From assembly GCA_947174015.1 (NCBI GenBank), contig CAMWHJ010000005.1, positions 5,014 to 69,013 of the forward strand: a stretch of 64,000 bases of DNA. The letters are read 5' to 3'. Within the stretch, counting starts at the first letter, position 1. Each line of letters starts with the position of its first letter. This DNA comes from an uncultured Lachnospiraceae bacterium. GTDB lineage: Bacteria > Bacillota > Clostridia > Lachnospirales > Lachnospiraceae. This document shows, one piece after another, positions 5,402 through 63,643 of this stretch. The position numbers were made by a program, and so were the translations under genes. The notes beneath the pieces are model-generated. The model ran no database searches. It was not told where the DNA came from and saw only the letters and a program-made list of their open reading frames with translations.

Positions 5402-6490
5402 ATGGAAGAATTAGAATATAAATACTGGTTTTATACGCTGGACTATTTAAGTCACAGGGAATGTGAACGATTGTTAAAAGAATATCATTGCATAGAAAAT
5501 ATATTTCAACTGTCTCAAGGGACCATAGAGCAGTTGCCTTGGCTTTCCAAACGTGCCAAAAGCAGCCTTATCCATCAGAGAAATCCATGCCGGATAATAG
5601 AAAGAATACAGTATGTGCAGGAAAAAGGAATGGGTTTTGTGTGTATCACAGACAAAGAATATCCCCAGCGATTGCGGTATCTGAAAGATAAGCCCAAAGC
5701 ACTGTTTTATCTGGGGGAACTGCCGAAAGAGGAAAAATATGCAGTGGCTGTCATTGGAGCCAGGGACTGCAGCAACTATGGAAAACGTCTGGCAGAGGAG
5801 ATAGGAGATGCATTGGCAAAGGGGGGAGTCAATGTGATCAGCGGCATGGCACGGGGAATCGACAGCTATGCCCAGAAAAAAGCTTTAGATATGGGCGGAA
5901 GAAGTTATGGGGTGTTGGGGTGTGGAGTGGATGTATGCTATCCCAAAACAAATTGGTGCTTGTATGAACAATTGATAGAAAAGGGTGGGATATTATCAGA
6001 ATTTTTACCGGGCATGCCGGCAAAAGCCATAAACTTTCCGCAGCGAAACAGAATTATCAGTGGTATATCGGATGCTGTGGTGGTGGTGGAGGCAAAAAGA
6101 CAAAGCGGCACCTCCATAACGGTGGGGTATGGTTTGGAACAAGGCAAAGATATCTACGCAGTACCCGGAAGAGTGGATGACAGTCTCAGTGAGGGCTGTA
6201 ATCTCTTGATTTCTCAAGGGGCTTATCCGGTGTTGAGCATAGAAGAGATGATGAGAGATATGGGAATTGTGGAAGAAAAAAATTTAAAATTTCATAAAAA
6301 AATGGAGATTCCTCTTGAAAGTAGATTCAAATTGGTGTATGATTGCTTAGATTTTATACCAAAGTCTGTTGTAAAACTTGTGGAGGAGACAGGTATAGAT
6401 AATTTGGAAGAAATCAATCAAATTCTGTTTGATTTAGAAATAGATGACAGAATCCAACAGGCTGGAACAGGATATTATGTTCGAAGGTAA
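5402..6490 (+). CDS. dprA: DNA-processing protein DprA
   Basis: DprA Rossmann-fold motifs GARDCSNYG, GMARGIDS, GVDVCYP and FPQRNRIISG. AGGAGG lies 5 nt upstream of ATG 5402. Confidence 0.9.
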   Translation: MEELEYKYWFYTLDYLSHRECERLLKEYHCIENIFQLSQGTIEQLPWLSKRAKSSLIHQRNPCRIIERIQYVQEKGMGFVCITDKEYPQRLRYLKDKPKALFYLGELPKEEKYAVAVIGARDCSNYGKRLAEEIGDALAKGGVNVISGMARGIDSYAQKKALDMGGRSYGVLGCGVDVCYPKTNWCLYEQLIEKGGILSEFLPGMPAKAINFPQRNRIISGISDAVVVVEAKRQSGTSITVGYGLEQGKDIYAVPGRVDDSLSEGCNLLISQGAYPVLSIEEMMRDMGIVEEKNLKFHKKMEIPLESRFKLVYDCLDFIPKSVVKLVEETGIDNLEEINQILFDLEIDDRIQQAGTGYYVRR

Positions 6491-6521
6491 TGGTTCGGAA
6501 ATGTCACCAAAGGAGGAGTAT

Positions 6522-50364: not shown

Positions 50365-50380
50365 GAGAGAGGTGCAGACT

Positions 50381-51079
50381 ATGAAAGAATATCAAGGTTT
50401 TACTGCCAATGCTTTGAAAATAATTGCTATTGTTACCATGTTGATTGACCATATTGGTGCTGCACTGGTATGGCAGATGGTGGGGCAGCAGGGAGATACC
50501 TTTTACATAATATACCGGGGGATGCGTCTGATTGGCAGAATTGCTTTTCCCATTTACTGTTTCTTTATTGTGGAGGGTTTCAGGCATACCAGAAGTGTGA
50601 AAAAGTACATGGCAAGGCTTGCGGTTTTTGCAATCATCTCAGAGATTCCTTTCGACTATGCATTTATGGGCGGGCTCACTCTGAGTTATCAAAATGTGTT
50701 CTTTACCTTAACTTTGGGTCTGGCATGTATCTGGGGATTTCAGGAATTGGAAGTCAGAATGAAAGCCGGATTGGCACAGACAGTATTAAAAATAGTTGTG
50801 ATGCTGGTAATGGCAGAAGCAGCGGAACTTTTACATACGGATTACGGTGACTTTGGAGTCATAATCATTGCAGTTCTTTATCTGTTTCAGAAGAAAAGGG
50901 GAATACAGTGTATTGTGGGAGCCTTGGGTTTTGCATGGGAAGTGACGGCACCTTTGTCCTTTGTGCTGCTTTATTTTTACAATGGAGAAAAGGGTAAGCA
51001 GGTAAACAAATATTTATTCTATGGTTTTTATCCGGTACATTTGGCGGTGATTGGTGCAGTGAGAATGCTGTGTTTTTAA
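50381..51079 (+). CDS. TraX-family membrane protein
   Basis: LKIIAIVTMLIDHIG N-terminal signature. Polytopic. Confidence 0.8.
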   Translation: MKEYQGFTANALKIIAIVTMLIDHIGAALVWQMVGQQGDTFYIIYRGMRLIGRIAFPIYCFFIVEGFRHTRSVKKYMARLAVFAIISEIPFDYAFMGGLTLSYQNVFFTLTLGLACIWGFQELEVRMKAGLAQTVLKIVVMLVMAEAAELLHTDYGDFGVIIIAVLYLFQKKRGIQCIVGALGFAWEVTAPLSFVLLYFYNGEKGKQVNKYLFYGFYPVHLAVIGAVRMLCF

Positions 51080-51121
51080 GTTTGGTATATCGGAAGATAC
51101 GGTAATAGTGATTACAAATAA

Positions 51122-51172
51122 AGCAGTTGTCACTTTACGGTTTTTGAATCGTGAAGTGACAACTGCTGTTTT
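51122..51172. terminator. Bidirectional terminator between convergent traX and cotJC
   Basis: AGCAGTTGTCACTT and AAGTGACAACTGCT form a 14-bp perfect stem. GTTTT lies on the + side and TTATTT on the - side. A second 10-bp hairpin lies at 51182-51214. Confidence 0.6.
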
Positions 51173-51221
51173 AATTCATGGCAATAGAAAGTTTGCAGAG
51201 CGTGCTTTCTATTGTTTCACA

Positions 51222-51834
51222 TTAATTACAACCACAGTTACAATCGTTACGATTTGGTTTTGGCATCACATTTGCAGTGTTAGTTTCATTGCTATTGCAG
51301 TTGCAGTTAGAAGTTTTCTGGGGGCAGTCAAAAGCAGGGTTAAAGGCATAGAAGTTTTTCGCATCCAGATGCTCCTGTACAATCCGCAGGGCTTCACCGA
51401 AACGCTGGAAGTGTACAATTTCACGCTGACGCAGAAAACGAATGGGATCTGCTACATCATGGTCATGTACCAGACGCAGTATGTTGTCATAGGTGGAGCG
51501 GGCTTTCTGTTCCGCAGCCAAATCTTCCACCAGATCGGTGATGGGATCTCCCTTAGACTGAAATTCGCATGCATTAAAAGGAATACCGCCAGCAGCTTGG
51601 GGCCATAAGCCGGTGGTGTGGTCAACATAATATTTGTCAAAGCCGGAAGCTACAATTTCGTCGGGGGTGAGATTTCTGGTAAGCTGGAATACAATGGTGC
51701 CTACCATTTCGAGATGTGCTAATTCTTCCGTTCCGATATCCGTCAATGTTCCCATAACCTCCCGATAAGGCATTGCATACCGTTGGGACAGATAACGCAT
51801 GGAGGCAGCCAGCTCTCCATCAGGACCACCAAAT
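51222..51834 (-). CDS. cotJC: cotJC 3-prime segment (Mn-catalase-family spore coat protein, residues 29-231 of the reconstituted protein); not translatable on its own from the native start
   Basis: Reads FGGPDGELAASMRYLSQRYAMPYREVMGTLTDIGTEELAHLEMVG... (di-metal ligand motifs of the CotJC/Mn-catalase family). The frame is closed by TGA 36 nt upstream of the junction core. Confidence 0.9.
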
Positions 51835-51849
51835 AACGTTAAGATATAG
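51824..51849. repeat. Element/chromosome junction 1 (att half-sites): core GACCACCAAAT plus inner arm ACGTTAAGATATAG
   Basis: The core is identical to 57561-57571. The arm 51836-51849 is the exact reverse complement of 57541-57554. Confidence 0.85.
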
Positions 51850-51907
51850 CACTGTTTTTCCTTGCAAAATCAAGGTTTTCAGACAAACCAAGACTACAAT
51901 ACGACTT

Positions 51908-53344
51908 TTATGATTTGTAAAATATGATTTCAAGAGATTTGCTCTCACGCTGGTATTTGATTTCTTTTACAATCTGCCGGAGAGAGGAGGCCTTTTCTTC
52001 GGAATCAGCATCAGACCGGAGAAGTTGAGCCACAGTTTTGCAATCCTCCATCAGTTGCCTGCGCAGCAGTGGAGAATCCTCCGGCATTTTTGTTTCAAAT
52101 ATTTTCTGCTCTATTTCATGCCGTTCCTTTTGTATGGCTTCTTTATTTTCTTTATATTCTTCCAAAGTATCAATTTCTGCCAGATAAGCCTCTTTACAGC
52201 GTTTTTCCTTTTTATCCAAATATGCAAGCTGTTTCTTGAAGTTGGCAAGGTCAATCTTCATATTCGCCTTTGGCAGAATGTCAAAATGGATGGTATCATA
52301 GTCCACATTATCCAAAATTTCAAGCAGCATTTTCTCCATATTATTCTGTGAAATATAACAGGAGCCGGGATGCATTCCCTTAGTATATTTGTAACACTGG
52401 AATCCTCCCTGTTTATTTTCCGGGTGATAATAAGTCATGGTAGCACCGCATACACCGCATTTTAAAAGACCACAGATGTAATGCTTTGAATATCCTACCC
52501 CTTTACGTCTTGCAGGGGTATATGAGCTTTCTATGCGTTTCTGAACATCATTAAAATCCCCTTCGGATATAAGAGGTTCATGTTTTCCGTCAGCAATAAT
52601 GATGTCATCCGGGTCATGATTCTGGTGCGAAGAATGGGAGGCACGATTCCAGCGAACTTTGCCAATGTAAAAAGGATTTTGCAAAATATAGCGAACGGTT
52701 CTGAGTTCAAAAGGATATCCACGCTTGGTCTTATGCCCCTGTTCATTTAATTTTCTTGCAATACTGGAAAAATCAATGCCTTCTAAATAAGATGTGTAGA
52801 TATACTTTACAATGGCAGCCTCTTTCTCATTGACCATTGGAATTTTGCCGGGAACAGAATCGTATCCGAGAGGAGCAGCGGACTGGTAGCCTCCCCGCAA
52901 TGCTTTTTCTGTCATGCCCCGCCGTACTTCACTGGCCAGATTAATGGAGTAAAATTCATCAAACCATTCGATAATGCGTTCAATCAGTGAACCAAAAGGC
53001 CCCTCTATAATCGGTTCACTGATCGATATCACATTTACACCGTTTTTTTCAAGTAAGGATTTGTAGACAATGCTTTCTTCCTGGTTTCTGGCAAAACGTG
53101 AGAATTTCCATACAAGGATAGCATCAAATTCTCTGTTTCTGGCAGCAACGATCATTTTCTGAAATTCTGGCCGCTTATCTGCCTTTTTCCCCGAAATTCC
53201 GTTTTCCATATAGATATGATCCGCAAGGACCTCATATCCGTTTTTCTTGGCATATTCAATCAGAAGTCGTTTCTGGGCATCCGGGGAGAGCTCCTCCTGT
53301 TTGGAGGTGCTCACCCGGATATAGAGAGCAGCGGTATTCTGCAT
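51908..53344 (-). CDS. large serine recombinase (SpoIVCA/phage-integrase type)
   Basis: N-terminal resolvase catalytic domain (AALYIRVSTSKQ with the nucleophile Ser; VWKFSRFARN), a recombinase domain, a zinc ribbon (CGLLKCGVCGATMTY...FQCYKY) and a C-terminal coiled coil. 478 aa. Confidence 0.95.
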   Translation of the reverse strand: MQNTAALYIRVSTSKQEELSPDAQKRLLIEYAKKNGYEVLADHIYMENGISGKKADKRPEFQKMIVAARNREFDAILVWKFSRFARNQEESIVYKSLLEKNGVNVISISEPIIEGPFGSLIERIIEWFDEFYSINLASEVRRGMTEKALRGGYQSAAPLGYDSVPGKIPMVNEKEAAIVKYIYTSYLEGIDFSSIARKLNEQGHKTKRGYPFELRTVRYILQNPFYIGKVRWNRASHSSHQNHDPDDIIIADGKHEPLISEGDFNDVQKRIESSYTPARRKGVGYSKHYICGLLKCGVCGATMTYYHPENKQGGFQCYKYTKGMHPGSCYISQNNMEKMLLEILDNVDYDTIHFDILPKANMKIDLANFKKQLAYLDKKEKRCKEAYLAEIDTLEEYKENKEAIQKERHEIEQKIFETKMPEDSPLLRRQLMEDCKTVAQLLRSDADSEEKASSLRQIVKEIKYQRESKSLEIIFYKS

Positions 53345-53365
53345 ATTTATCTCATCCTTTCAAAG

Positions 53366-53379
53366 TTGCACCGGTGCAA
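53366..53379. promoter_or_regulatory. Perfect 14-bp palindrome TTGCACCGGTGCAA between the hicB stop and the recombinase RBS
   Basis: It abuts the hicB TAA stop and lies 21 nt upstream of the recombinase ATG. An identical copy sits at 54315-54328. Confidence 0.4.
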
Positions 53380-53775
53380 TTATCGCACGCCGATTTTCTG
53401 AATTAAAGCTTCTTGAAGTACCTGAGAAAAGTTTACACCATAGGCAGTAGCTTCCTCGTTGAGCCATTCCGGAATAGTAAGGGTTTTCTTAACCGCCTTA
53501 TTGTTATACATTTTTCGATATTTCATCGTATCTGCTTTTATATAGTTTACAAATTCGTTTTCCATAAGATGAATATCTGAGGGATTGCTTGGTTCTGGGA
53601 TTGTCTTGCCGTCTACTTCGTAACCATATAGCACAAGTGCAAGGACATCCTCTGCCATTTCAATTCCCTCTTCTAAAGTGTCAGCACATGTATAACAGCT
53701 TTCCAAATCCCTGAAAGTAATAGAGTAATTTCCCTCCGGCTCCTTTGTAAAAATGGCTGGATATACATACTTCAT
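53380..53775 (-). CDS. hicB: HicB-family antitoxin with a C-terminal ribbon-helix-helix-like DNA-binding tail
   Basis: MKYVYPAIFTKEPEGNYSITFRDLESCYTCADTLEEGIEMAEDVL (HicB/UPF0150 fold) and C-terminal TLTIPEWLNEEATAYGVNFSQVLQEAL. Confidence 0.85.
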   Translation of the reverse strand: MKYVYPAIFTKEPEGNYSITFRDLESCYTCADTLEEGIEMAEDVLALVLYGYEVDGKTIPEPSNPSDIHLMENEFVNYIKADTMKYRKMYNNKAVKKTLTIPEWLNEEATAYGVNFSQVLQEALIQKIGVR

Positions 53776-54005
53776 AAGATAACCTCCTTAAGATATATAA
53801 ATAGTATGAGGTATTGCATGGGTGATATCCCTGCATCCTCTCTAATGCGGTTGCAAGTTCCGGTTGGAACATCCTGAGATGGATGCCTTGGCACAGGAAA
53901 ACTCTTTCCAGTGTGGGGGCTGAATCAGATATCATGCCTCTTGCCATGCCTTTGCAGGTAACAGCCGTTTTTCTTTAGTAATTTGATAAGTTCAGATACT
54001 TTCAA
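53772..54005 (-). pseudogene. hicA: hicA toxin gene inactivated by an in-frame TGA at codon 27
   Basis: TTG start after AAGGAGGG. Reads LKVSELIKLLKKNGCYLQRHGKRHDI, then TGA (53927-53925), then FSPHTGKSFPVPRHPSQDVPTGTCNRIREDAGIS. HicA homologues have Trp (TGG) at the TGA position. The terminal TGA overlaps the hicB ATG. Confidence 0.75.
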
Positions 54006-54030
54006 TCCACGCCCTCCTTTCACTATAATT

Positions 54031-54059
54031 AATATAGCACGTATATACACGTGTGTCAA
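54031..54059 (-). promoter_or_regulatory. sigma-A promoter of the hicA(pseudo)-hicB(-recombinase) transcription unit
   Basis: TTGACA, 17-nt spacer, TATATT. The spacer CACGTGTATATACGTGC is itself near-palindromic and is a likely HicB operator. Confidence 0.6.
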
Positions 54060-54107
54060 TGACATGTATAGGTAGAGTGTAAGGTGACAATTTCTAATAT
54101 CCAATGC

Positions 54108-54305
54108 CATAAAAAGACAAAATATGAGTTTACAAAATAAAAATAATATGATATACTTGAGAAGTAGTCAGATGTATCTTAAATTCTCCCCTAAAGATAT
54201 TAGATGCATCAAAGATTACTCCCTCTTCATATTAGTAATTTTTGCAAACCGCAGCATAGATGATATGCTGCGGTTTTCTCTTTCGTAAAAGTAAAGTCTT
54301 GACAA
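54108..54305. repeat. Copy 1 of a roughly 200-bp direct repeat (about 95 percent identical to 55067-55266)
   Basis: Base-by-base comparison shows only a handful of substitutions and one 2-nt indel. Confidence 0.95.
54164..54283 (+). ncRNA. Candidate small RNA, copy 1 (about 120 nt), divergent from the hicA promoter
   Basis: TTTACA (54129), 17-nt spacer, TGATATACT extended -10 (ends 54157). Terminator is a 12-bp perfect stem AACCGCAGCATA/TATGCTGCGGTT (54247-54275) plus TTCTCTTT. C-rich motifs CTCCCCT and CTCCCTC. Confidence 0.4.
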
Positions 54306-54314
54306 GCATCAAAG

Positions 54315-54328
54315 TTGCACCGGTGCAA
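54315..54328. promoter_or_regulatory. Second copy of the palindrome TTGCACCGGTGCAA, abutting the stop of the second hicB
   Basis: Identical 14-mer with the same flanks (CAAAG...TATCG). Immediately follows the hicB TAG. Confidence 0.4.
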
Positions 54329-54736
54329 CTATCGTACACTGGTTTTTTTGGACATATCCAGAAGGGCATCCTGCAATATTTTTGAGAAATTTACATTGTT
54401 TTTTTCTCCAAAAGTATTAAGCCATGCAGGTAAAGTGATGTTTTTGCGTACTGTCTTTTCCCCATATTTTTCTGAATAAGTGTCCATGTCAAGGACCAGC
54501 AGATTAACAAAACTTCCAGTGGGAACTTCCAGTTCAGTGAACTCAGAAGCAGCAGGAATGGAGTTTCCTTCTTCCAATTCCAAAAGAATCCAACCGGATG
54601 CTGCATCCGTTCCCATCTCAATGGCATCAATTAGGTTATCGCCTTCACTAACGCAGCCGGGCAAGTCAGGAAAGGTGACTGTATAACCGTCTTTTTCGAT
54701 ACATGGCATAAAAATTGCCGGGTAAATGAGTTTCAT
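54329..54736 (-). CDS. hicB: HicB-family antitoxin (second, diverged copy)
   Basis: MKLIYPAIFMPCIEKDGYTVTFPDLPGCVSEGDNLIDAIEMGTDA... and C-terminal ITLPAWLNTFGEKNNVNFSKILQDAL. AGGAG lies 9 nt upstream of ATG 54736. Confidence 0.85.
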   Translation of the reverse strand: MKLIYPAIFMPCIEKDGYTVTFPDLPGCVSEGDNLIDAIEMGTDAASGWILLELEEGNSIPAASEFTELEVPTGSFVNLLVLDMDTYSEKYGEKTVRKNITLPAWLNTFGEKNNVNFSKILQDALLDMSKKTSVR

Positions 54737-54765
54737 ATTCATACACTCCTTTTTCGGAAGCAAGA

Positions 54766-54948
54766 CTATTTTAGTCCTGCTTGTTTTAATATTGAATTAG
54801 CGGTACCTTTATCGACATCTCCGGCATGAAAAGGTATTGTCACCTTTCCGGGTTTGGAATCATGCTTGTAATGTCTATGGGAGCCGACTTGTCGTATCAG
54901 GTGCCAGCCATCCTCTAATAATATCTTTTCAAGTTCCCTAGCTCTCAT
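54766..54948 (-). CDS. hicA: HicA-family mRNA interferase toxin (intact)
   Basis: 60 aa, MRARELEKILLEDGWHLIRQVGSHRHYKHDSKPGKVTIPFHAGDVDKGTANSILKQAGLK. AAGGAGG RBS. Confidence 0.9.
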   Translation of the reverse strand: MRARELEKILLEDGWHLIRQVGSHRHYKHDSKPGKVTIPFHAGDVDKGTANSILKQAGLK

Positions 54949-54974
54949 CTTTAATGTGCCTCCTTATAGTTATA

Positions 54975-55002
54975 ATTATACACATTATACACACAAAGTC
55001 AA
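54975..55002 (-). promoter_or_regulatory. sigma-A promoter of hicA-hicB module 2, with palindromic operator candidates
   Basis: TTGACT, 16-nt spacer, TATAAT. A 17-bp palindrome ATGTGTATTATACACAT lies just upstream. Confidence 0.5.
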
Positions 55003-55066
55003 TAGAAGATGTGTATAATACACATAAATAGTATGAGGTATTGCAGGGTTTATATCCCTGCGATGT

Positions 55067-55266
55067 CATAAAAAGACAAAATATGAGTTTACAAAATGAA
55101 AATAATGTGATATAGTAGAAAAGTAGTCAGATGTATCTTAAATTCTCCCCTAAAGATAGTAGGTGCATCAAAGATTACTCCCTATCTTCATATTAGTAAT
55201 TTTTGCAAACCGCAGCATAGATGATATGTTGCGGTTTTCTCTTTCGTAAAAGTAAAGTCTTGACAA
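55067..55266. repeat. Copy 2 of the roughly 200-bp direct repeat
   Basis: See 54108-54305. Confidence 0.95.
55123..55244 (+). ncRNA. Candidate small RNA, copy 2
   Basis: TTTACA (55088), 17-nt spacer, TGATATAGT. The terminator stem 55208-55236 carries one C-to-T change that converts a G-C pair to G-U, so the stem is preserved. Confidence 0.4.
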
Positions 55267-55369
55267 AATTCTGGTCAAGAATAACTTTTTTTAAGTGAAA
55301 AAATGTCAAGAATAACAGATAAAAGAAAAGCCCATGTAAAATGCAGGGGCTTTAGAAAATGGCTGGAAA

Positions 55370-56188
55370 TTAGCTTACTCTTAGACTAAGTGTTTCATAA
55401 TACTCTCGTGCTCCGGGGATTTTGGTAAATACAGCAGTATTATTAAACTGTTTCTTCACTACATCCTCAATCTCATCAATGCTAACATGAAAGAACTCCT
55501 TTCGAAGATTAACCAGATTGACACGCTGATTTTGGAAATGTTTATGCAATGCATGTTCTAGTGCCGGAGCATCATCTGAGAATATCATGGCATGAACATC
55601 AAACTCAAATGGAACAGAAGCACTGCTGAGTTCTTTTACACGATCCATAGGTTCCAAGCGGCGTGTCATACCAATTTTATAAATGTCCTCTCCAAAAGAA
55701 CCAATATTCGAGATAATATAGACATAACCTGCTTTTGCATTCGCTTCTCGTTCGAGAACGGTATTTTTTTCAGATTCCAGTTGTCTCAAGCGTTCCTCTA
55801 GTTCTCTGATTTTATCAATATATAATTGTTTTTCAGCAGAATCATTAGAGTTTTGCATATATTGCATCAGACGTTTCATTTCATTGTTGTGCTGAGCTTG
55901 GTCTTTTTCAATTTTGGCTTTTTGACGTTCGATTTCTTTTCTGACTTTTTCTTCTTCTGCCATTTGCTCACGGATAGAGCGTTGTATCTCTGCCTCCTGT
56001 TCTTTTTTCAACTCAAAGGTATAAACAAGATTCCACTTATCTAATTTCAGTTTTAAAATTTCAAGGTTTAGTTGGACACCGTCTACCACAAATATCTTAC
56101 TTAAGAGTTTCAAAAGATTTTGAAATCTTTTCACGAAAGGAGAGATATAACATGGTAAGTACTGCAGTAGAAAACAAAAATTACACAC
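55370..56188 (-). pseudogene. N-terminally truncated DUF4041 / T5orf172 (GIY-YIG-like) domain protein
   Basis: C-terminal GYVYIISNIGSFGEDIYKIGMTRRLEPMDRVKELSSASVPFEFDVHAMIFSDDAPALEHALHKHF...KEFF is a T5orf172 domain, preceded by the coiled-coil part of DUF4041. Homology is lost upstream of about 56130, and the first 20 or so codons of the ORF look like junk. Confidence 0.65.
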
Positions 56189-56319
56189 CAGAAGAATTAG
56201 CAGGTCTTTGCAGATTCTTAGAAGTTTATAGAAAGCCTTGGAAAATAGAAAGGAGAGTGAAAAACTGGATTGGCGATATCACACTAAGGGTCAAGGTAGA
56301 TAAAGAAAGCATGAATTAG
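56152..56319 (+). CDS. 55-aa hypothetical ORF at the truncation point of the DUF4041 gene
   Basis: AAAGGAGAG RBS 7 nt upstream of the ATG. No recognisable domain. May be a gene fragment. Confidence 0.25.
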   Translation: MVSTAVENKNYTPEELAGLCRFLEVYRKPWKIERRVKNWIGDITLRVKVDKESMN

Positions 56320-56486
56320 AGAAACAGCATGAAATGCTAGGGAGAACAATTACAGAACTAAAGAAAATGGTAGAAGTAGAAAAAAGAACCCACCAGAGGG
56401 CAGGTTTCTAAAAACGGACAGGTGTGAATAACCGCATAGCGTACAAACCATAGAACATAAATTAAAAAAAGAAAGGAGGGGTAGTT

Positions 56487-56666
56487 ATGGCAGCAAAACC
56501 ATTACCACTTTCAAATGGATTCTCTGCAATTATTCACGTAGAGCAGACGGATGGAACTGTAAAAGACATTCAATCATGGGAAGAACTATCAGAGGAGTTT
56601 AAGGTACTGAACCCACAGGCATTGCGTGCAGTAGGACTTGTGCCGCATAAAGACAATGCCGGATGA
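56487..56666 (+). CDS. 59-aa hypothetical protein (below the ORF-track cutoff)
   Basis: Strong RBS AAAGGAGGGG 6 nt upstream of the ATG. Reads MAAKPLPLSNGFSAIIHVEQTDGTVKDIQSWEELSEEFKVLNPQALRAVGLVPHKDNAG. Confidence 0.4.
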   Translation: MAAKPLPLSNGFSAIIHVEQTDGTVKDIQSWEELSEEFKVLNPQALRAVGLVPHKDNAG

Positions 56667-56719
56667 TGAGAACAAAAAATAGAATGCGTTTATTGAACTG
56701 ATGGACTGAAAATTGAATA

Positions 56720-56838
56720 TTGGCTGTGCACCAGAAGCCGCACTGGGATCCTCATTGATACGATATATTTCAAATACTCCACCTCAATAATAATAGATTT
56801 GCTGCAACCTTCCGGTGCGGTGTCTAGTGCACAGCCAA
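56720..56838. repeat. Imperfect 29-bp inverted repeats flanking a 61-bp spacer
   Basis: TTGGCTGTGCACCAGAAGCCGCACTGGGA (56720-56748) versus the reverse complement of 56810-56838. The outer 12 bp are perfect, with 24 of 29 matching overall. Confidence 0.7.
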
Positions 56839-57069
56839 AGCAAAAAAGAAGAAACAAACAACAAATGGCAAGATTAACTTATAAAAACAAAAATGGAACA
56901 TGGGGACTTAACAACGGTTACGATATGCACAAAGTTCCGAAAGAGTTGTATGGAGTTCTGTGGAAATTAAAGGATTATTATAAAAGAGTGGCAGCAGGTC
57001 CTGAAAAAACGCCTCATCAAAGAAGACAGGGAACTATCAAGAATCAGTGCCGTAAAACGAACAGAAAAC

Positions 57070-57203
57070 ATAAAAGAACTGCAGGAAAACCCATAGAGCA
57101 GGTTCAGGCAATGCTAGGGCATGAGAGCATAGACACAACCCTAATCTATGCAAGAACCAACGATTCTACTGTAAAAGAAAGCCACAAACGATATTTAACA
57201 TAA
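57070..57203 (+). pseudogene. C-terminal fragment of a tyrosine recombinase/integrase
   Basis: AGKPIEQVQAMLGHESIDTTLIYARTNDSTVKESHKRY carries the LGH...TT..Y catalytic-Tyr motif. The upstream part of the same ORF (MARLTYKNKNGTWGLNNGYD...WKLKDYY) is an unrelated phage-type fragment. Confidence 0.6.
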
Positions 57204-57540
57204 GGAGGCAACAGGTGGAATTGCGTATCGACAGCAGGTAAGCTGGTTATACAACAGTTGAGGTAAAACAACATTCCAGTGTTTTACATGCACCCACAAA
57301 GCTTTTGCAGGAAAGTATATTGGAAAAGAAATTTTCCTATGAAGGATCAAAACTTTATGAAATCAATTTCCAAAACGCAAGGTGTGTGGAGGATAACAAT
57401 TTGAACAAATATGTGAATAAGAAAATGGAAAATTCGGAGCCAAGACTAAGCAGGCTTGTCGGACAGTTTCAGAAAAAAGTAGTGCGAAAACCAGAGGAGC
57501 CCAGATTGTGCAGGCAAATAATTTTTACAAAATATAAATA

Positions 57541-57571
57541 CTATATCTTAACGTAATTCAGACCACCAAAT
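57541..57571. repeat. Element/chromosome junction 2 (att half-sites): inner arm CTATATCTTAACGT, 6-nt spacer, core GACCACCAAAT
   Basis: See junction 1. Arm and core are exact matches. Confidence 0.85.
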
Positions 57572-57654
57572 TGAGATATAATAACCTGTGCCAGCTTAGG
57601 ATTGGAAGTTTTAATATTTACCGGATACTGCAATTTTTTTTCATAACTCCACAT
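57561..57654 (-). CDS. cotJC: cotJC 5-prime segment (codons 1-31 of the reconstituted gene)
   Basis: The ATG directly follows the cotJB TAA. MWSYEKKLQYPVNIKTSNPKLAQVIISQFGG is a typical CotJC N-terminus. In the integrated state it runs into the element and stops after LNYVKI. Confidence 0.9.
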
Positions 57655-57930
57655 TTAGCAATTTCCTCCTTCCCAAGGCCATGGGGATAGCACCCAATCC
57701 CATTTCGTTTGACTGTTGCCAGTAAGAGCCAGAGTCAAAGGAGTGAAACGGGTAGAATATTCTTTCATGGCTGTATTTTTCATTTCCACACATTCCTGAT
57801 AGAATTTCAAAGCCTCCATATCATCAGGATGGGTATCCAAATAGAGGGCAGTTTCCACCACCGCAAAGCTAATCATGTGAATCCAGTCAAAAAGTTGTTC
57901 ACGATTCATACGACTGCAGCTGGAATTCAT
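57655..57930 (-). CDS. cotJB: spore coat protein CotJB
   Basis: FAVVETALYLDTHPDDMEALKFYQE...WDWVLSPWPWE matches the CotJB signature. Confidence 0.9.
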   Translation of the reverse strand: MNSSCSRMNREQLFDWIHMISFAVVETALYLDTHPDDMEALKFYQECVEMKNTAMKEYSTRFTPLTLALTGNSQTKWDWVLSPWPWEGGNC

Positions 57931-58139
57931 GGGCAGGCCCTCCTTCCGATAAATGGTTTATCTAATTCGGGAAATAGAGTACCCTGCTGCAGTGCTTTGT
58001 CAAAATCGTAAATCTGATTCCATGTCTGCCAAGGTACATAAGTCATGCCAACAGGAAAATGATCGGGAAATCCTTCTCTTTTTTGATAGGGCATGCAACG
58101 TTGCTGGGGCATGGAACGGTTACATCTACAATCTGCCAT
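57927..58139 (-). CDS. cotJA: spore coat-associated protein CotJA
   Basis: GMTYVPWQTWNQIYDFDKALQQGTLFPELDKPF matches the CotJA signature. ATG 58139 lies after AAAGGA (the ORF opens at TTG 58157). Confidence 0.8.
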   Translation of the reverse strand: MADCRCNRSMPQQRCMPYQKREGFPDHFPVGMTYVPWQTWNQIYDFDKALQQGTLFPELDKPFIGRRACP

Positions 58140-58171
58140 CCAAGCAAATCCTTTCAAAGAATGTTCATAAT

Positions 58172-58198: not shown

Positions 58199-58513
58199 GA
58201 ATGGCAAATAGCTACTTGTACAAAATTCACAAAGATAAATAAAAAGTAAAAAAAATGGAATAATGACAGTTAAGTAACTCAAAAAATAAAAACTGGTTTT
58301 TAAAAGGAAAAATTGTCCATAAAGAAACTGTCAGGAAAAAAAATAAATTTATTTACAAATGAGTGACACATGATATTTCGGTAAAAATGACGAAAAGTTT
58401 ACAAAACATTGAAAAATGAAAAAAAATATGTGCAAAATGTGAACAAAAGTGTTATACTGAGATGGAAACATATAGACGGATTTAACAAAAAATGTGAAAG
58501 GAAGGAAAAAGAT

Positions 58514-61500
58514 ATGCATAAAAGGCGCATTTTTAAGTTCTTTCGAGCTACTCTTTGTGCGACATTGGCATTGTCAATGATTTGTGGTGATTTAGGAGCC
58601 ACACTTGGCATTGCCTATGCGAAGGAATCCACCGAGATTCAGACAGTGGAAAACACAGAGGTAGAGGAAGAAGTGCGGGAGGCAGATGTGGATTCAGCAG
58701 CATCCAACTATGGTCTTGCTGAGAATACAAAGGATGGTGTGATTCTTCATGCATTTTGCTGGTCTTTCAATGTAATCAAACAAAACATGAAAGACATTGC
58801 AGAGGCAGGTTATACCACTGTGCAGACATCTCCAGCCAATGCTTGTAACGACAGTTGTCCGGGAATGAAACTATATACAGATGATAATGGAACCGGTGGC
58901 TGTTGGTGGTGGCATTATCAGCCTACAGACTGGACCATTGGAAACTATCAGTTAGGTACAAAAGAAGATTACAAAGCAATGTGTGACGAAGCGGATAAAT
59001 ATGGAATTAAGATTATTACCGACGTTATTCCAAACCATACCACACCAGATCTTCAAAGAGTTGCCTCGTCGTTAGTGGCAACCGGTGGCGGAACAGGGGC
59101 AGGACAGTTGTATCATTCCAATGGTTTCAGAGGAATTGAGAACGGTGGCGAATGGTCCTGGGGCAATCGTCTTGCATGTACCACAGGCATGATGGGCGGT
59201 CTTCCGGATGTGAATACGGAAAACCAAGCTTTTCAGGCATATTACCTAAAGTATTGTAATGATTTAATTGAAATTGGCTGTGACGGTTTTCGTTACGATA
59301 CTGCAAAGCATATCGGTGTGCCAAGTGACCCGTGTGATCCCTCAAACTCCCGTGGTGTTAATGATTTCTGGGATGTGGCTACTGGTAAAAAAGCAGTTAA
59401 TGGTGTCACTTTAAAGAATGCAGACCAGGTGTTTATCTATGGTGAGGTGCTGCAGGGTGACAATGTACCCACAGCGGAGTATGCAACCTATATGTATCAG
59501 ACTGCCAGCCATTACGGCGGAACATTGAGAGATGCCATCAAAAACAAAGACTTTAGTACAGGCAAGATATCCGATTGGTCACATACCAATCCGGGCAGAG
59601 TTGTCAGTTGGGTGGAATCTCATGATACATATTGTAATGACCATGAATCCGGCTGGATGTCAGACTGGGATATTCGGATGGCATGGGCAATTATTGCAGC
59701 ACGTAAAGACGGTGTGCCTTTATGGATGAGCCGTCCGGAGGGTTCCAACGGTAGTTCGGGAAATTACTGGGGCAACAATGTACTTGGTGCAAAAGGAAAT
59801 GACCAGTTTAAGGATCCGGAAGTAGTTGCAGTGAATTTCTTCCGCAATGCTATGGCAGGAGAGGGAGAATATTTAAGAAATCCAAACGGCAACAATCAAA
59901 TTCTTCAGATTGACAGAGGAAGCAAGGGTACTTGTATCATTAATTTAGGTGGAGAAGTGGGTAGTTTCAGCAATGAGACCACTATGGCAGACGGAACCTA
60001 TACCGATCAGGTGTCCAAAAGAGAGTTCACCGTATCCGGCGGAAGGATCAGTGGTAAGTTAGATGGCGGAAAAATTGCAGTTATCTACAATGCCGGTCCC
60101 ATAAGACAAGGGGTGAATGTAACTGCTTCCGTGGCAGACGGCAAGAGTTTTACAGAGGACAGCATGGATGTTACCTTTACTGTAACCAATGCGGTCAGTG
60201 CTACTTATTCTGTCAATGGAGGCACAGCAGAAGCCTTTACAGATAAAGTAAAGCTTACCTTAGGTGCCGGAGAAGGTTATGGAAATATTAAGGTAACCAT
60301 AACAGCTAAGAGTGAAGATGGTGAGACTACCACCAAGACATTTACTTATACCAAAAAAGAGGCAGGAAAACTGTCCAAGAATACAGTATACTTCACTAAA
60401 CCAAGCGGTTGGGGTTCACCAAAGATTTATGCGTATGTGGACGGCGCAACAGCTACAAAGCTGACTGGTGAATGGCCGGGAACAGCTATGACAGATGAAG
60501 GTGATGGTGTATATTCCTATACATTTGCAGATAGTGTAAGTGCTGCCAAGGTGATCTTTAATGATGGAACGAATCAGGATCCACAAGATACCCCGGGACA
60601 GAGTTGCGGTTTTGATTATGCTTCCGGTAAGGCATATACATATGAAGGTGGTACTTGGACGCCGGTGAATGTGCAAACAGCTACCAATACACCAAAACCA
60701 ACCAACACCACTAAGCCAACGAACACACCTACGGCACAGCCGCAGCCTACGAGGGATAATTCCAATATTTCTGTGGATTTTCCAAATGGTTCTTCCTTTC
60801 ATACGGAAACCAAGACGATTAAGATTACGGCAGCAAACAATGCAAAAGGAACCTATACAGTGGACAATGGTCCGGTGAAAGAATTTGCCGGAACAGCCAG
60901 TGTAGTAATCGGTAAAGGCAAGATTGCAGATTCTGATGTGACGGTAAAGATAACCGTAGGAAGTGAAACAGAAACCTATACATATAAAAAAGTGTTTGAT
61001 GCAGATGCAGCAGAGGCACAAATCAATGCAGCAGCAGAAGAAGAGGCAGTTGTGGCGGCTGAAAAGATAAATGCAGCAGCAGAAACAGGCGGTGTGTATG
61101 CAACCAATCCAAATGGTGGTGTAGGGAAAGAAAAAACCATTAAATCCATGGCAGATTTTGATGCAGGTTGTCTGGTAGCTCAGTCCGGTGCATGGGATGT
61201 ACCTAACACATGGAATGGAGCTCATGAAAATAGTGTGGCAGACTGCTATGGTTTATATGCCGCATGGGATGATACGAATTTGTATGTGGGTGTAGAATAT
61301 GTGAATACCACAGATACATGGCAGAGAGAAGGAGAGGCTTCTCTGATGGATAATGGAAAGATGTCTAATGTACCAGTGGCTTTGGCAATTAACGCAGGTA
61401 CAAAAACAGCTATGACAGGAAAGATGGAAGCAGCCGCTGATGATGATTATATCTGGGGACTAAAGTGTGAATTTGAAACCAGAGTGGATCATTTACTGAT

Positions 61501-63643
61501 TGGAAGTGCACAAGTTGGTTCTGGAACACCGGGCTTATTTGTGGCGAAATCAGATGGAACAGCAAGCTATGATCCGGAATATTGCTTATCCTTTAAAGAG
61601 AATGGTATCACCTATCAGGCAGAAGATGGAAGCATCTCATCTTCAATTATGCATTTAAAAGGTTCTCAGTCTGTGGATGATGCATATGACAGTTCAAAGT
61701 ATGTGGATGCCTTGACTGATGGTAACGGACATAATAGAAAGTATGATACTTTCTTTACATATACCATACCACTTAGTGTATTGGGAATTGATAAAGCAAC
61801 TTTAACGAGTAACGGAATTGGAATTATGGGACTGGCAACCAGAGGAGAGTCCTGCATGGATTCGGTACCTCATGACCCGTCTATGTTGGATAATACAATG
61901 GAAGCATATCGTGCAGGAGATAATACATCCTATGAAAAGGAAGATTTGGATGTTATCACAGTGCCATTGGCAAGTGTAGGTAAGCTGAACAGTGGAGGAG
62001 GCGGCGATATCACACCTATTGTGCGCCCCACATCTACCACGGCACCAACTACAGCACCAACCGCAGCACCTGATGGATTAGCAGTAAATTTTGGAGCAGA
62101 CCGTTCTGCACCCCAGTACAATTCCACAGCATTAACACTGGAAGCCATTGCCAATGGCGGAGCAGGAAGCTATAATTATGAATTTTTTGTAGATGATGTT
62201 TCTGTCCAAAAGGGTACAACAAGCAAATACAAATGGCAAAATAGTGCAGCAGGTGCACATACCATTAAGGTGAGTGTAACAGACAGCAAGGGCTTGTCAA
62301 AGACCATTACAAAATCCTATGATTTAGAGAATGATGGTACAGTAGTTGCCACAAACACACCAATACCGATTGTAACTGATATACCAGACAACACACCTGT
62401 TCCTACAGCTACAAACACACCGATACCTGTTGTGACACAGCCAGTGAGTCAGTTGAGGATTACAGGATTTGTGGTAAGCAGCAGTTCAGGCGGTACCCAG
62501 TGTAAGATTGGAGAACGTTTAACTTTCCGGGCATCAACCTCTGGTGCGGAGGGTACAGCACTTTATATGTTTACTTATATCCTGAACGGAGAAGAGGTGA
62601 TTGTAAAAAATTATGGAACGGAAGATACCATAAGCTTTATTGCAGAAGAAGCCGGTTCGTACAAATTTAAGGTTTATGCGGTAGATCACAACAATTTCTC
62701 CAGTTCAGAGTATGAAACCGGTCAGATTCAAGTGATGGATGATCCGAATATTACAGTGGGACCGGATGTAACAGACACTCCGATTATCACAGGTAATCCG
62801 GTAGGAACCATAACACCTACACAGGGAGGGGTGACACCGACTAAGAAGGCGACTCCAACACCAACCAAGAAGGTGACACCGACTAAGAAGGCGACTCCAA
62901 CACCAACCAAGAAGGCGACTCCGACACCAACCAAGAAGGCAACACCGAAACCAACCAAGAAACCTACGGCAGTACCTACTGGAACTGTACCAAAACCGGG
63001 TACCATTATTGTAGTGGAGAATGAAGATGCAGATTTTAAAGTACTATCTTCCAGCGGAAGCAATAAATCAGTGGAGTATACCAAATATCAGGGAGATGAG
63101 CAAGAGGTAATTATTCCATCTACCGTAACCGTTAATAATGTTAAGTACAAAGTAACTTCCGTTGCAGCTTCAGCGTTTAAAAATAATAAGAACATAAAGA
63201 CAGTGATTATCAGCAGCAATGTGAACAGTATTGGAAAATCTGCTTTCTACGGATGTACTTCCTTAAAGAAGATTACAGGTGCTTCTAATATAAAGACCAT
63301 TGATGATAAAGCATTCTATGGATGCAAATCATTGACTAGTGTGACAATGAGCTCTAAGCTTACGTCGATTGGTAAGTATGCATTTTATAAATGTACTTCC
63401 TTAAAGAAGATTACCATTCCGGCGAAAGTAAGCAAAATTGGAACAAAGGCATTCTACGGATGTAAGAATCTAAAGACCATTACAATTAAAACCACAAAGC
63501 TAACCAGCAGCAAGGTGGGAAGCAGTGCATTTAAGAACATCTATAATAAGGCAACCGTGAAGGTGCCCAAAAAGAAAGTAAGCAGCTACAAGAAACTTTT
63601 AAAGAAAAAGGGATTGAGCAGTAAAGCAAAAATAAAGAAATAG
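58514..63643 (+). CDS. Secreted multidomain GH13 alpha-amylase with starch-binding-like modules and C-terminal BspA-type leucine-rich repeats
   Basis: Signal peptide MHKRRIFKFFRATLCATLALSMICG...AYA. GH13 regions DVIPNHT, GFRYDTAKH, YGEVLQ and WVESHD. CBM25/26-like segment VYFTKPSGWGSPKIYAY...WPGTAMT. Pro/Thr/Lys linkers. LRR units IGKSAFYGCTSLKKI repeated. Lys-rich tail and no LPXTG motif. Confidence 0.9.
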   Translation: MHKRRIFKFFRATLCATLALSMICGDLGATLGIAYAKESTEIQTVENTEVEEEVREADVDSAASNYGLAENTKDGVILHAFCWSFNVIKQNMKDIAEAGYTTVQTSPANACNDSCPGMKLYTDDNGTGGCWWWHYQPTDWTIGNYQLGTKEDYKAMCDEADKYGIKIITDVIPNHTTPDLQRVASSLVATGGGTGAGQLYHSNGFRGIENGGEWSWGNRLACTTGMMGGLPDVNTENQAFQAYYLKYCNDLIEIGCDGFRYDTAKHIGVPSDPCDPSNSRGVNDFWDVATGKKAVNGVTLKNADQVFIYGEVLQGDNVPTAEYATYMYQTASHYGGTLRDAIKNKDFSTGKISDWSHTNPGRVVSWVESHDTYCNDHESGWMSDWDIRMAWAIIAARKDGVPLWMSRPEGSNGSSGNYWGNNVLGAKGNDQFKDPEVVAVNFFRNAMAGEGEYLRNPNGNNQILQIDRGSKGTCIINLGGEVGSFSNETTMADGTYTDQVSKREFTVSGGRISGKLDGGKIAVIYNAGPIRQGVNVTASVADGKSFTEDSMDVTFTVTNAVSATYSVNGGTAEAFTDKVKLTLGAGEGYGNIKVTITAKSEDGETTTKTFTYTKKEAGKLSKNTVYFTKPSGWGSPKIYAYVDGATATKLTGEWPGTAMTDEGDGVYSYTFADSVSAAKVIFNDGTNQDPQDTPGQSCGFDYASGKAYTYEGGTWTPVNVQTATNTPKPTNTTKPTNTPTAQPQPTRDNSNISVDFPNGSSFHTETKTIKITAANNAKGTYTVDNGPVKEFAGTASVVIGKGKIADSDVTVKITVGSETETYTYKKVFDADAAEAQINAAAEEEAVVAAEKINAAAETGGVYATNPNGGVGKEKTIKSMADFDAGCLVAQSGAWDVPNTWNGAHENSVADCYGLYAAWDDTNLYVGVEYVNTTDTWQREGEASLMDNGKMSNVPVALAINAGTKTAMTGKMEAAADDDYIWGLKCEFETRVDHLLIGSAQVGSGTPGLFVAKSDGTASYDPEYCLSFKENGITYQAEDGSISSSIMHLKGSQSVDDAYDSSKYVDALTDGNGHNRKYDTFFTYTIPLSVLGIDKATLTSNGIGIMGLATRGESCMDSVPHDPSMLDNTMEAYRAGDNTSYEKEDLDVITVPLASVGKLNSGGGGDITPIVRPTSTTAPTTAPTAAPDGLAVNFGADRSAPQYNSTALTLEAIANGGAGSYNYEFFVDDVSVQKGTTSKYKWQNSAAGAHTIKVSVTDSKGLSKTITKSYDLENDGTVVATNTPIPIVTDIPDNTPVPTATNTPIPVVTQPVSQLRITGFVVSSSSGGTQCKIGERLTFRASTSGAEGTALYMFTYILNGEEVIVKNYGTEDTISFIAEEAGSYKFKVYAVDHNNFSSSEYETGQIQVMDDPNITVGPDVTDTPIITGNPVGTITPTQGGVTPTKKATPTPTKKVTPTKKATPTPTKKATPTPTKKATPKPTKKPTAVPTGTVPKPGTIIVVENEDADFKVLSSSGSNKSVEYTKYQGDEQEVIIPSTVTVNNVKYKVTSVAASAFKNNKNIKTVIISSNVNSIGKSAFYGCTSLKKITGASNIKTIDDKAFYGCKSLTSVTMSSKLTSIGKYAFYKCTSLKKITIPAKVSKIGTKAFYGCKNLKTITIKTTKLTSSKVGSSAFKNIYNKATVKVPKKKVSSYKKLLKKKGLSSKAKIKK
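62831..62962 (+). repeat. In-frame tandem repeats (2 x 42 bp, then 2 x 24 bp) encoding the (TPTKKA) linker
   Basis: GTGACACCGACTAAGAAGGCGACTCCAACACCAACCAAGAAG is duplicated exactly (62831-62872 and 62873-62914), followed by shorter related units. Confidence 0.9.

Follow-up and report, generated by a model that had tools for sequence, protein, structure and literature searches.

Site-specific serine recombinases and the splitting of the spore-coat gene cotJC in uncultured gut Clostridia

Introduction

When a mobile element lies inside a sporulation gene, is that gene lost, or can it be rebuilt? The question is raised by a 64-kb stretch of DNA from an uncultured Lachnospiraceae bacterium (contig CAMWHJ010000005.1 of assembly GCA_947174015.1, positions 5,014 to 69,013). 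In this stretch, which we call the window and in whose coordinates positions are given, the spore-coat gene cotJC is divided in two by an intervening element that encodes a large serine recombinase (LSR). We conclude that the element was almost certainly integrated by the LSR at a cotJC site specific to its recombinase family. It is likely that the element can still be excised, and the chances that excision occurs specifically during sporulation appear to be about even. Loci used for comparison are given L numbers.

The split cotJC gene can be rebuilt exactly

The cotJC gene is the third gene of a cotJA-cotJB-cotJC operon on the minus strand, with a GerA-family gene among its neighbours. The initial annotation had described a cotJC reading that starts at ATG 57654, directly after the cotJB stop codon, and soon leaves homology, and we find the same. 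The ATG opens a segment encoding MWSYEKKLQYPVNIKTSNPKLAQVIISQFGG, followed by LNYVKI and a stop; as it stands, this segment loses homology after ...ISQFGG, stops six codons on and comprises 37 codons in all. The CotJC reading picks up at 51834 and ends at the stop codon at 51222, again as annotated, and an in-frame TGA lies 16 codons upstream of the point where it resumes. Each breakpoint carries the 11-mer GACCACCAAAT (51824-51834 and 57561-57571), which occurs only these two times in the window, and the identity of the two copies extends by zero extra bases on either side. The chance of a given 11-mer recurring at one given position is about 2e-7, and here the reading frame is restored too.

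Removal of 51835-57571 (5,737 bp) gives a 696-nt open reading frame (ORF) of 231 codons, in agreement with the original calculation. The peptide across the rebuilt joint is ISQFGGPDGELAAS, and the joint-spanning sequence is ISQFGGPDGELAASMR. The rebuilt ORF matches the Pfam Mn_catalase profile with E = 6.5e-48 over profile positions 1-198, and its product aligns end to end with 12 intact homologues at 80-92% identity, gap-free through the joint. These intact CotJC proteins are likewise encoded after cotJA and cotJB. The joint, SQFGG|PDGE, is near-invariant, with S27, Q28, F29, G30, G31, P32, D33, G34 and E35 each at least 90% conserved. Against the NCBIfam model of true manganese catalase the rebuilt protein scores 79 bits, far under the cutoff of 350, as expected because it is of the shorter CotJC type.

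The exact joined 231-amino acid protein is absent from a collection of 15 billion proteins. Its neighbour and one of its parts are in NCBI: MDE6313188.1 ('spore coat protein CotJB', from a Lachnospiraceae metagenome-assembled genome, MAG) is the exact cotJB protein, and MDE6313178.1 is the ATG-started part of the cotJC 3' segment. The latter is a point for annotators, as this gene fragment is publicly labelled as a 192-amino acid 'manganese catalase family protein'.

The attachment sites and the recombinase

The sites at the two ends of the element, attL and attR (Table 1), have the 11-bp core in common. In the rebuilt attP, an 18-bp spacer is flanked by perfect inverted arms of 14 bp, CTATATCTTAACGT and ACGTTAAGATATAG, and the site has its centre of symmetry at the GG of the second glycine codon, within the core. 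The predicted attB is ATCTCAATTTGGTGGTCCTGATGG; on the sense strand the predicted attP is TCTTAACGTTATTTGGTGGTCTGAATTACGTTAAGA and the predicted circle junction CTATATCTTAACGTTATTTGGTGGTCTGAATTACGTTAAGATATAG. Across the recombinase family described below, attB reads GGT-GG-WCC, which is palindromic except for the central GG. We infer strand exchange at this GG because it is both the centre of attP symmetry and the sole asymmetric part of the attB palindrome. Added support comes from the closest pair of family members in opposite orientation, which differ exactly at the central dinucleotide (TCA-GGT-GG-CCC in L023 and TCA-GGT-CC-TCC in L013). In its predicted build, the attachment site is that expected of a serine integrase.

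The recombinase stop codon lies 73 nt inside one junction. By its domain order the 478-amino acid protein is an LSR, as first annotated: three Pfam domains are found, Resolvase (E = 2.2e-32), Recombinase (E = 2.2e-26) and Zn_ribbon_recom (E = 8.9e-5, just under the cutoff). The catalytic motif YIRVSTSKQ occupies residues 8-16, and a coiled coil at approximately residues 370-430 was judged by eye only. There are weak, below-cutoff matches to the CcrB and XisF models. The same sequence is present in NCBI as MDE6313179.1. With the LSR at the element's edge, the short core, the inverted arms of attP and the exact restoration of the gene, the reading of this DNA as an intervening element is well founded.

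In the window, hicAB modules stand upstream of the recombinase gene. In their place, the related elements L004 and L005 have a non-coding stretch of approximately 200 bp that immediately precedes the recombinase gene (L004 9770-9990, L005 9790-10000) and is conserved between both. This DNA may be the ancestral regulatory region of the recombinase.

Occupied and empty alleles, and a second docking site

In a sister species, an occupied allele (L004) and an empty one (L034) are 99.96% identical over 4,911 bp. The difference between them begins exactly at the core, and the insertion is precise. Six contigs (L034-L039) have an intact cotJABC in the same neighbourhood of amylase gene, cotJABC, traX and gerA.

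Within the species of the window, the 5.7-kb element was seen in four samples at 99.8-100% identity. Its carriers include samples SRR14411330, SRR14411245 and ERZ14208436 and the NCBI Lachnospiraceae MAG that encodes MDE6313178-88. The uninterrupted form that the initial annotation proposed to look for in related genomes is found in five contigs of the same species (L042, L043, L044, L045 and L047), in which this site, site 1, is empty and reads as the predicted joint, ATATCTCAATTTGGTGGTCCTGATGGAGAGCTG. The flanks of these empty-site strains are 98.7% identical to those of the window.

A second attachment site (site 2; codons GTE|ELAH), which is empty in the window, lies further along in cotJC. 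In other strains of the species (L040, L041, L042, L044, L045 and L047) it holds a prophage with P2-like tail genes, whose LSR of 535 amino acids is unrelated to that of the window element (24% identity) and has hicA-hicB directly before its gene. One contig, L043 (ERZ23500066 scaffold_263), is uninterrupted through both sites at 6277-6523 and ends 48 nt past the site-2 core. Its end suggests a branch in the assembly graph, with occupied and empty or excised forms coexisting in the sample. The idea that cotJC is never intact in this species was rejected on the basis of this contig. One species thus has three allelic states, with site 1 holding a mini-element, with site 2 holding a full prophage, or with both sites empty.

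Double occupation is seen in a Ruminococcus clade (L007 11421-13150 and L051 11447-13206). There, a recombinase of the window's family lies at FGG|PDG, and a third, unrelated LSR (27-29% identity) follows approximately 100 nt on, after DIGTE. Judged from these junctions, recombinases dock in cotJC at no fewer than two distinct sites.

A recombinase family specific for cotJC

We scanned one genome per GTDB species and identified 24 loci with relatives of the recombinase at 28-65% identity. The hosts of these MAGs, which belong to Lachnospiraceae, Ruminococcus, Eubacterium and Oscillospiraceae, include ruminants and rabbits. Seventeen of the 24 (37-65% identity) have the recombinase gene next to a piece of cotJC, and in all 17 the gene is broken at the same codons, GGN-GGN|CC. 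Ten of these loci resemble the window in that the recombinase gene runs in the direction of the 3' fragment; in the other seven it converges on the 5' fragment and cotJB, as in L005, where 1.7 kb separate it from the junction. Over the recombinase tree, insertions change orientation several times. On the evidence of these breakpoints, it is this cotJC site that the recombinase lineage specifically uses in many genomes. The initial description of the element as cotJC-specific therefore holds for its recombinase lineage; the element is not a lone case, being one of a widespread family.

Unintegrated attP sites, such as TCTGTTTTTGGTGTATGGGGGCGCATACTCCAAAAGCAGA, were found in L006, L009 and the IMG/VR contigs L049 and L052. 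In L049, attP adjoins genes for endolysin, holin, tape measure and major tail proteins. Free attP sites beside tail and lysis genes indicate that the family includes real temperate tailed phages. The closest relatives of the window element, L004 and L005, have genes for a LexA-like repressor, a rolling-circle Rep and an SLT transglycosylase and a full-length PD-Lambda-1 gene. The sister element in L004 has a 65%-identical LSR and the same defence gene. When the whole locus was compared by megablast with the phages of GenBank and the plasmids of PLSDB, no relative of the element came up; a single unannotated phage record gave the sole match, to a cotJC-like stretch at 77% identity. Judged by these family relationships, the window element descends from a widespread family of temperate elements and is a decayed member of it.

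This family history bears on an explanation in which excision occurs and has nothing to do with development. The cotJC gene would be only a conserved, dispensable landing site, any rebuilding of it would be incidental, and excision could be stochastic, stress-induced, or driven by a directionality factor that a related phage, superinfecting or resident, supplies in trans. The full-size relatives are in keeping with this, being ordinary-looking temperate elements with LexA-like (Peptidase_S24) repressors, and free phage genomes exist. The presence of at least three unrelated LSR lineages at the conserved cotJC motifs FGGPDG and DIGTEE fits a choice of target driven by sequence conservation alone, and the repeated flips of orientation point the same way. 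However, the window element has no repressor or other regulator and is in this respect more like the domesticated skin elements, and the recurrent targeting of mother-cell sporulation genes by LSRs is a pattern for which developmental excision has been demonstrated. We regard the explanation by non-developmental excision as unlikely.

Two Oscillospiraceae relatives of the recombinase (38-39% identity; L011 3020-3200 and L021 11443-11620) lie beside the 3' end of a different gene (...FPVEEFFPPDSIDAAEDYRSAIQNLN...). Their target specificity appears to have switched.

Anatomy of the element

The features of the locus are collected in Table 1. The start codon of cotJA is probably ATG 58139; gene calls in contigs of the same species give it 61-70 amino acids.

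Table 1. Coordinates of the split cotJC locus and of the intervening element within the window
Feature	Position	Strand	Remarks
cotJA	57927-58157	-	Pfam CotJA, E = 3.2e-18
cotJB	57655-57930	-	Pfam CotJB, E = 1.4e-27
cotJC 5' segment	57561-57654	-	83 nt plus 11-nt core; codons 1-31
cotJC 3' segment	51222-51834	-	11-nt core plus 599 nt coding plus stop codon
Second, empty attachment site in cotJC	51710-51734	-	GGAACGGAAGAATTAGCACATCTCG; core GAATTAG at 51719-51725; codons GTE|ELAH
attL	57541-57577		cotJC sense strand ATCTCAATTTGGTGGTC|TGAATTACGTTAAGATATAG
attR	51817-51849		sense strand CTATATCTTAACGTT|ATTTGGTGGTCCTGATGG
Intervening element	51835-57571		5,737 bp including one core copy; mosaic
Large serine recombinase gene, intact	51908-53344	-	478 amino acids; Pfam Resolvase, Recombinase, Zn_ribbon_recom
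hicB copy 1, antitoxin gene	53380-53775	-	Pfam HicB_lk_antitox; 36 nt upstream of recombinase gene
hicA copy 1, pseudogene	53826-54005	-	in-frame TGA 53925-53927; translation ...RHGKRHDI(stop)FSPHTGKSFPVPRHP...
hicB copy 2	54329-54736	-	Pfam HicB_lk_antitox, E = 3.9e-16
hicA copy 2, intact toxin gene	54766-54948	-	Pfam HicA_toxin, E = 2.6e-22
Direct repeat, approximately 200 bp	54104-54305 and 55063-55266		copies 93-99% identical
PD-Lambda-1-type (T5orf172/MUG113) defence gene remnant, 5'-truncated	55370-56176	-	Pfam; PADLOC
55-amino acid ORF	56152-56319	+	good ribosome-binding site; gene call in three same-species contigs
59-amino acid ORF	56487-56666	+	GGAGG ribosome-binding site
Site-2-prophage-like fragment	56689-56978		91% identity to internal region of same-species site-2 prophage
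Tyrosine recombinase C-terminal remnant	57069-57203	+	45-codon stub; Pfam Phage_integrase positions 139-170 of 172 only

The element has a G+C content of 38.4%, against approximately 41.7% in its flanks, and is what remains of a temperate mobile element, in degenerate and mosaic form. It retains no genes for phage structure, replication or repression. The defence gene remnant matches PADLOC PD-Lambda-1 with E = 1.5e-102 over profile positions 222-473 of 491 only; it corresponds to residues 166-438 of the 440-amino acid L004 protein at 82% identity, so that the first 165 or so codons are gone. The tyrosine recombinase stub matches the NCBIfam models XerA, XerC and XerD at their C-terminal ends only.

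Several pieces of the element share 82-97% identity with parts of another prophage found in this species, which indicates that the two have exchanged DNA. The 3' end of hicB copy 1 has 82% identity to the hicB beside the unrelated site-2 prophage recombinase, and the direct repeat is 94-97% identical to L040 7222-7462, within the site-2 prophage. Each copy of the direct repeat supplies a hairpin and a promoter upstream of its hicA; strong sigma-70-like promoters are found at 55002-54975 before hicA copy 2 and at 54059-54031 before hicA copy 1. Assemblies break at this locus because of the repeat.

A perfect palindrome of 14-16 bp, (AG)TTGCACCGGTGCAA(CT), follows both hicB stop codons (53364-53379 and 54315-54330), and one copy of it falls within the 36 nt that precede the recombinase start. 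The palindrome could serve as an operator or in processing. At 56191-56207 on the plus strand stands GAAGAATTAGCAGGTCT, which, read in inverted orientation, agrees at 15 of 17 positions with GAAGAATTAGCACATCT, the site-2 core region of cotJC. It is located exactly where homology ends between the truncated PD-Lambda-1 gene and its full-length relative. The resemblance may be due to chance, or the other recombinase may have a pseudo-site or have left a scar here.

Can the element still be excised?

We propose the following course of events. The element almost certainly integrated by means of its own LSR at the site used by the LSR family, in sequence coding for FGG|PDG, and recombination of attL with attR would yield an intact cotJC and a circular element. 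The LSR is probably constitutive, by read-through from the sigma-A-like hicAB promoter just upstream. Serine integrases need a recombination directionality factor (RDF) for excision from attL and attR, and a small protein of this kind, for which the 59- and 55-amino acid ORFs are candidates, would be required here. By analogy with skin/sigK, SPbeta/spsM, vfbin/spoVFB and gin/gerE, excision would take place in the terminal mother cell. The cotJ operon of Bacillus subtilis is expressed in the mother cell under sigma-E, and a sigma-E-type cotJABC operon would here give full-length CotJC after excision, with the forespore genome retaining the element. The intact hicA2/hicB2 toxin-antitoxin pair would penalise vegetative loss of the element. 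A functional remnant of 5.7 kb is plausible because reported skin elements are as small as 2.6 kb, with 2 genes.

Selection on the genes involved speaks for function. The recombinase genes of the window and of L002/L003 have seven differences, of which six are synonymous and one is the conservative change K180R. A binomial estimate that takes 25% of sites as synonymous gives p ~0.001 for this 6:1 ratio under neutrality, which indicates that the recombinase is still under selection while the rest of the element decays. Across the family, all ten of the 3' cotJC fragments examined are open to the natural stop codon. The split fragments have ratios of nonsynonymous to synonymous divergence (dN/dS) of 0.03-0.08 at a synonymous divergence (dS) of 0.8-1.3, and their dS values are similar to those of the adjacent LSR genes (0.82/0.91, 0.97/0.86 and 1.25/1.09). 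Low dN/dS together with matching dS is the pattern that an old split gene kept functional would show.

Several observations weigh against continued excision. Phages that track their hosts, with repeated re-integration, could give the same dS figures. The element-bearing strains are nearly clonal (99.8-100%), which leaves little time for the split gene to have decayed in this lineage. CotJC is non-essential for sporulation in Bacillus subtilis, and its permanent knockout would be tolerable. The ancestral genes of the element are mostly lost or broken, as in the truncated defence gene, the hicA1 stop codon and the tyrosine recombinase stub. No RDF was recognised, the 55- and 59-amino acid ORFs having no match in Pfam, NCBIfam, PHROGs or PADLOC, and no convincing sigma-E or sigma-K promoter was found by eye before the recombinase gene or either of these ORFs. 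Among the viral contigs of IMG/VR the circle junction had 0 matches, in keeping with the apparent absence of the species from pattern-searchable collections. Finally, the 59-amino acid ORF may be a mere leftover, because its place in the larger relatives is just that of the leading gene in a conserved early operon.

Much of this is what a dead insertion would look like. In such a case the element would have been integrated by its LSR, the RDF would have been lost in decay, and without excision cotJC would be permanently null in this sublineage, whose spores would then be made without CotJC or with a paralogue. The heavily decayed, mosaic cargo, the negative RDF search of the element ORFs, the want of a visible sporulation promoter and the empty site 1 of other strains of the species are consistent with this explanation, and in a near-clonal set of strains the intactness of the two cotJC halves proves little for the lineage. 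It is opposed by the intact LSR ORF with its synonymous excess, since a useless gene would not be so constrained, by the att arms, which are still perfect, and by the open, conserved split cotJC genes of the family with their LSR-matched dS. A dead insertion is possible, and we think it less probable than continued excision. Because sequence alone cannot show excision, the initial annotation was right to make no claim that it still occurs.

Of the two possible RDF genes, the 55-amino acid ORF is a candidate and the 59-amino acid ORF a speculative one. Homologues of the latter are present in the related elements L004, L005, L010 and L031-L033; in the larger relatives they are followed in the early operon by SLT, DUF6906, Rep, PcfJ and SSB genes. 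The remnant has kept only three ancestral genes, and that the 59-amino acid ORF is among them is no more than suggestive. An AlphaFold model from a seven-sequence alignment (mean predicted local distance difference test score 60, predicted template modelling score 0.34) was too poor and was not used. A CATAAATTA motif before this ORF was considered as a sporulation promoter and rejected, as it has no correctly spaced -35 element. A scan with consensus promoters returned sigma-70-like sites only, 28 against 22.5 expected, which is about the chance rate. Before the 59-amino acid homologues of L004 (6430-6660), L005 (5140-5330) and L031 (3650-3800) there is a long-range inverted repeat, ACAGGGCACCGGAAGCCATGCGGG ... 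CCGCATGGCGTCCAGTGCCCTGTA, that is conserved among the three and not present in the window; it may represent a single-strand origin or a structured RNA.

The 24-mer of the empty site had 0 matches in JGI metagenome contigs. As this 24-mer is present in ENA and Logan contigs of the species, the JGI collection evidently does not contain the organism.

Comparison with known intervening elements

Elements of this class are already known from skin/sigK, SPbeta/spsM, vfbin/spoVFB, gin/gerE and yin/yabG. The initial annotation had left undecided whether cotJC is a reported target, and it has in fact been listed in silico: a preprint on SPbeta relatives (bioRxiv 10.1101/2021.11.22.469490) names cotJC, gerE, yaaH and yhbH as targets in a statement for which it cites Abe et al. 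2013, and Galperin et al. (bioRxiv 10.1101/2022.02.25.481979) reported a skin-like element in cotJC of Laceyella sacchari. In these cases the same host gene is split by a skin-like element. The break in Laceyella, a member of the Bacilli, is at approximately residue 77, with an insert of 8.1 kb (from the supplementary coordinates of Galperin et al.), whereas the break described here is at residues 31/32 and in Clostridia. In an incomplete search of the literature we found no experimental work on cotJC elements and no FGG|PDG-site family in gut Clostridia. What is new here is the site-specific recombinase family, the second docking site in the same gene and the three allelic states in one species.

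The skin elements of Bacillus subtilis (SpoIVCA/Skr) and Clostridioides difficile (CD1231/CD1234) are likewise defective, prophage-like remnants that split a sporulation gene, which in skin is expressed in the mother cell, as cotJC here probably is. They too have an LSR gene at the edge, next to the 3' gene fragment, and a short common core with inverted arms. The window element differs in that its target is a coat-protein gene and not a sigma factor gene, so sporulation itself would not depend on excision. Its recombinase is only distantly related to those of skin, and neither an RDF nor a sporulation promoter was found. Excision has been demonstrated in the known skin systems and is predicted for the window element.

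SPbeta/spsM (SprA/SprB) and yin/yabG of Clostridium botulinum are temperate phages or phage-like elements in late, non-essential spore-envelope genes, and as in the window a precise rebuilding of the gene is possible. The closer analogue of SPbeta is the site-2 prophage of the same species (L040, L042), the window element being a 5.7-kb remnant without phage structural genes. SPbeta has a known RDF, SprB, under the control of sporulation sigma factors; no counterpart was recognised in the window element. The gin element in gerE of Bacillus cereus (GirC/GirX) also lacks phage structural genes and depends on an LSR. At 28.6 kb it is larger, with three recombinases and the demonstrated accessory factor GirX, whereas the window element has one serine recombinase and a dead tyrosine recombinase stub. 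The cargo of gin is restriction-modification genes, and that of the window element is toxin-antitoxin genes and defence gene remnants.

A more distant parallel is XisF and the fdxN element of Anabaena heterocysts, in which an LSR excises an intervening element from a gene as the cell differentiates terminally. Both the phylum and the programme of development are different. The window recombinase matches the NCBIfam recomb_XisF model over its full length with E = 1.1e-34, and its 120 bits are far below the cutoff of 375, so it is not an XisF orthologue.

Taking these systems together with the two docking sites, we tentatively suggest that cotJC of gut Clostridia is a recurrent docking gene for unrelated LSR phages (at FGG|PDG and DIGTE|E), with strains carrying alternative 'switches' or none. 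The 5.7-kb element might then be a domesticated minimal switch, composed of the recombinase, a small RDF that goes unrecognised (for example, of the 59-amino acid family) and a toxin-antitoxin lock, and CotJC production would depend on a DNA rearrangement in the mother cell. This broader proposal is speculative, and we would sooner expect it to need revision than to stand in full.

The recombinase family, the second docking site and the three allelic states together make it testable whether the element is a switch or cotJC a tolerated landing site, and the three states within one species offer a natural system for a direct test. Spore formation drives host-to-host transmission in gut Lachnospiraceae and Oscillospiraceae, and to our knowledge almost nothing is known about the regulation of spore-coat genes in these groups. 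If excision proves to be developmental, programmed DNA rearrangement during sporulation extends to their uncultured members. The family is also a set of diverged serine integrases with one short attB (GGT-GG-WCC within the FGGPDG codons) and matched attP sites in both orientations. Such a set should be useful for studying the evolution of specificity and polarity and in the hunt for new directionality factors.

The neighbourhood of the operon

The cotJ operon is adjoined by a gene on the plus strand (58409-63643) for a secreted protein of 1,744 amino acids with Alpha-amylase, CBM26 and LRR_5 domains (Pfam), which has the same position in the sister species. The L001 locus (SRR33036516 contig), with approximately 80% nucleotide identity to window positions 50372-58157, has an intact cotJABC that is co-directional with traX. 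Unlike L001, the window, L004 and L034 have a cotJABC that converges on traX, which indicates that the operon has been inverted in one lineage.

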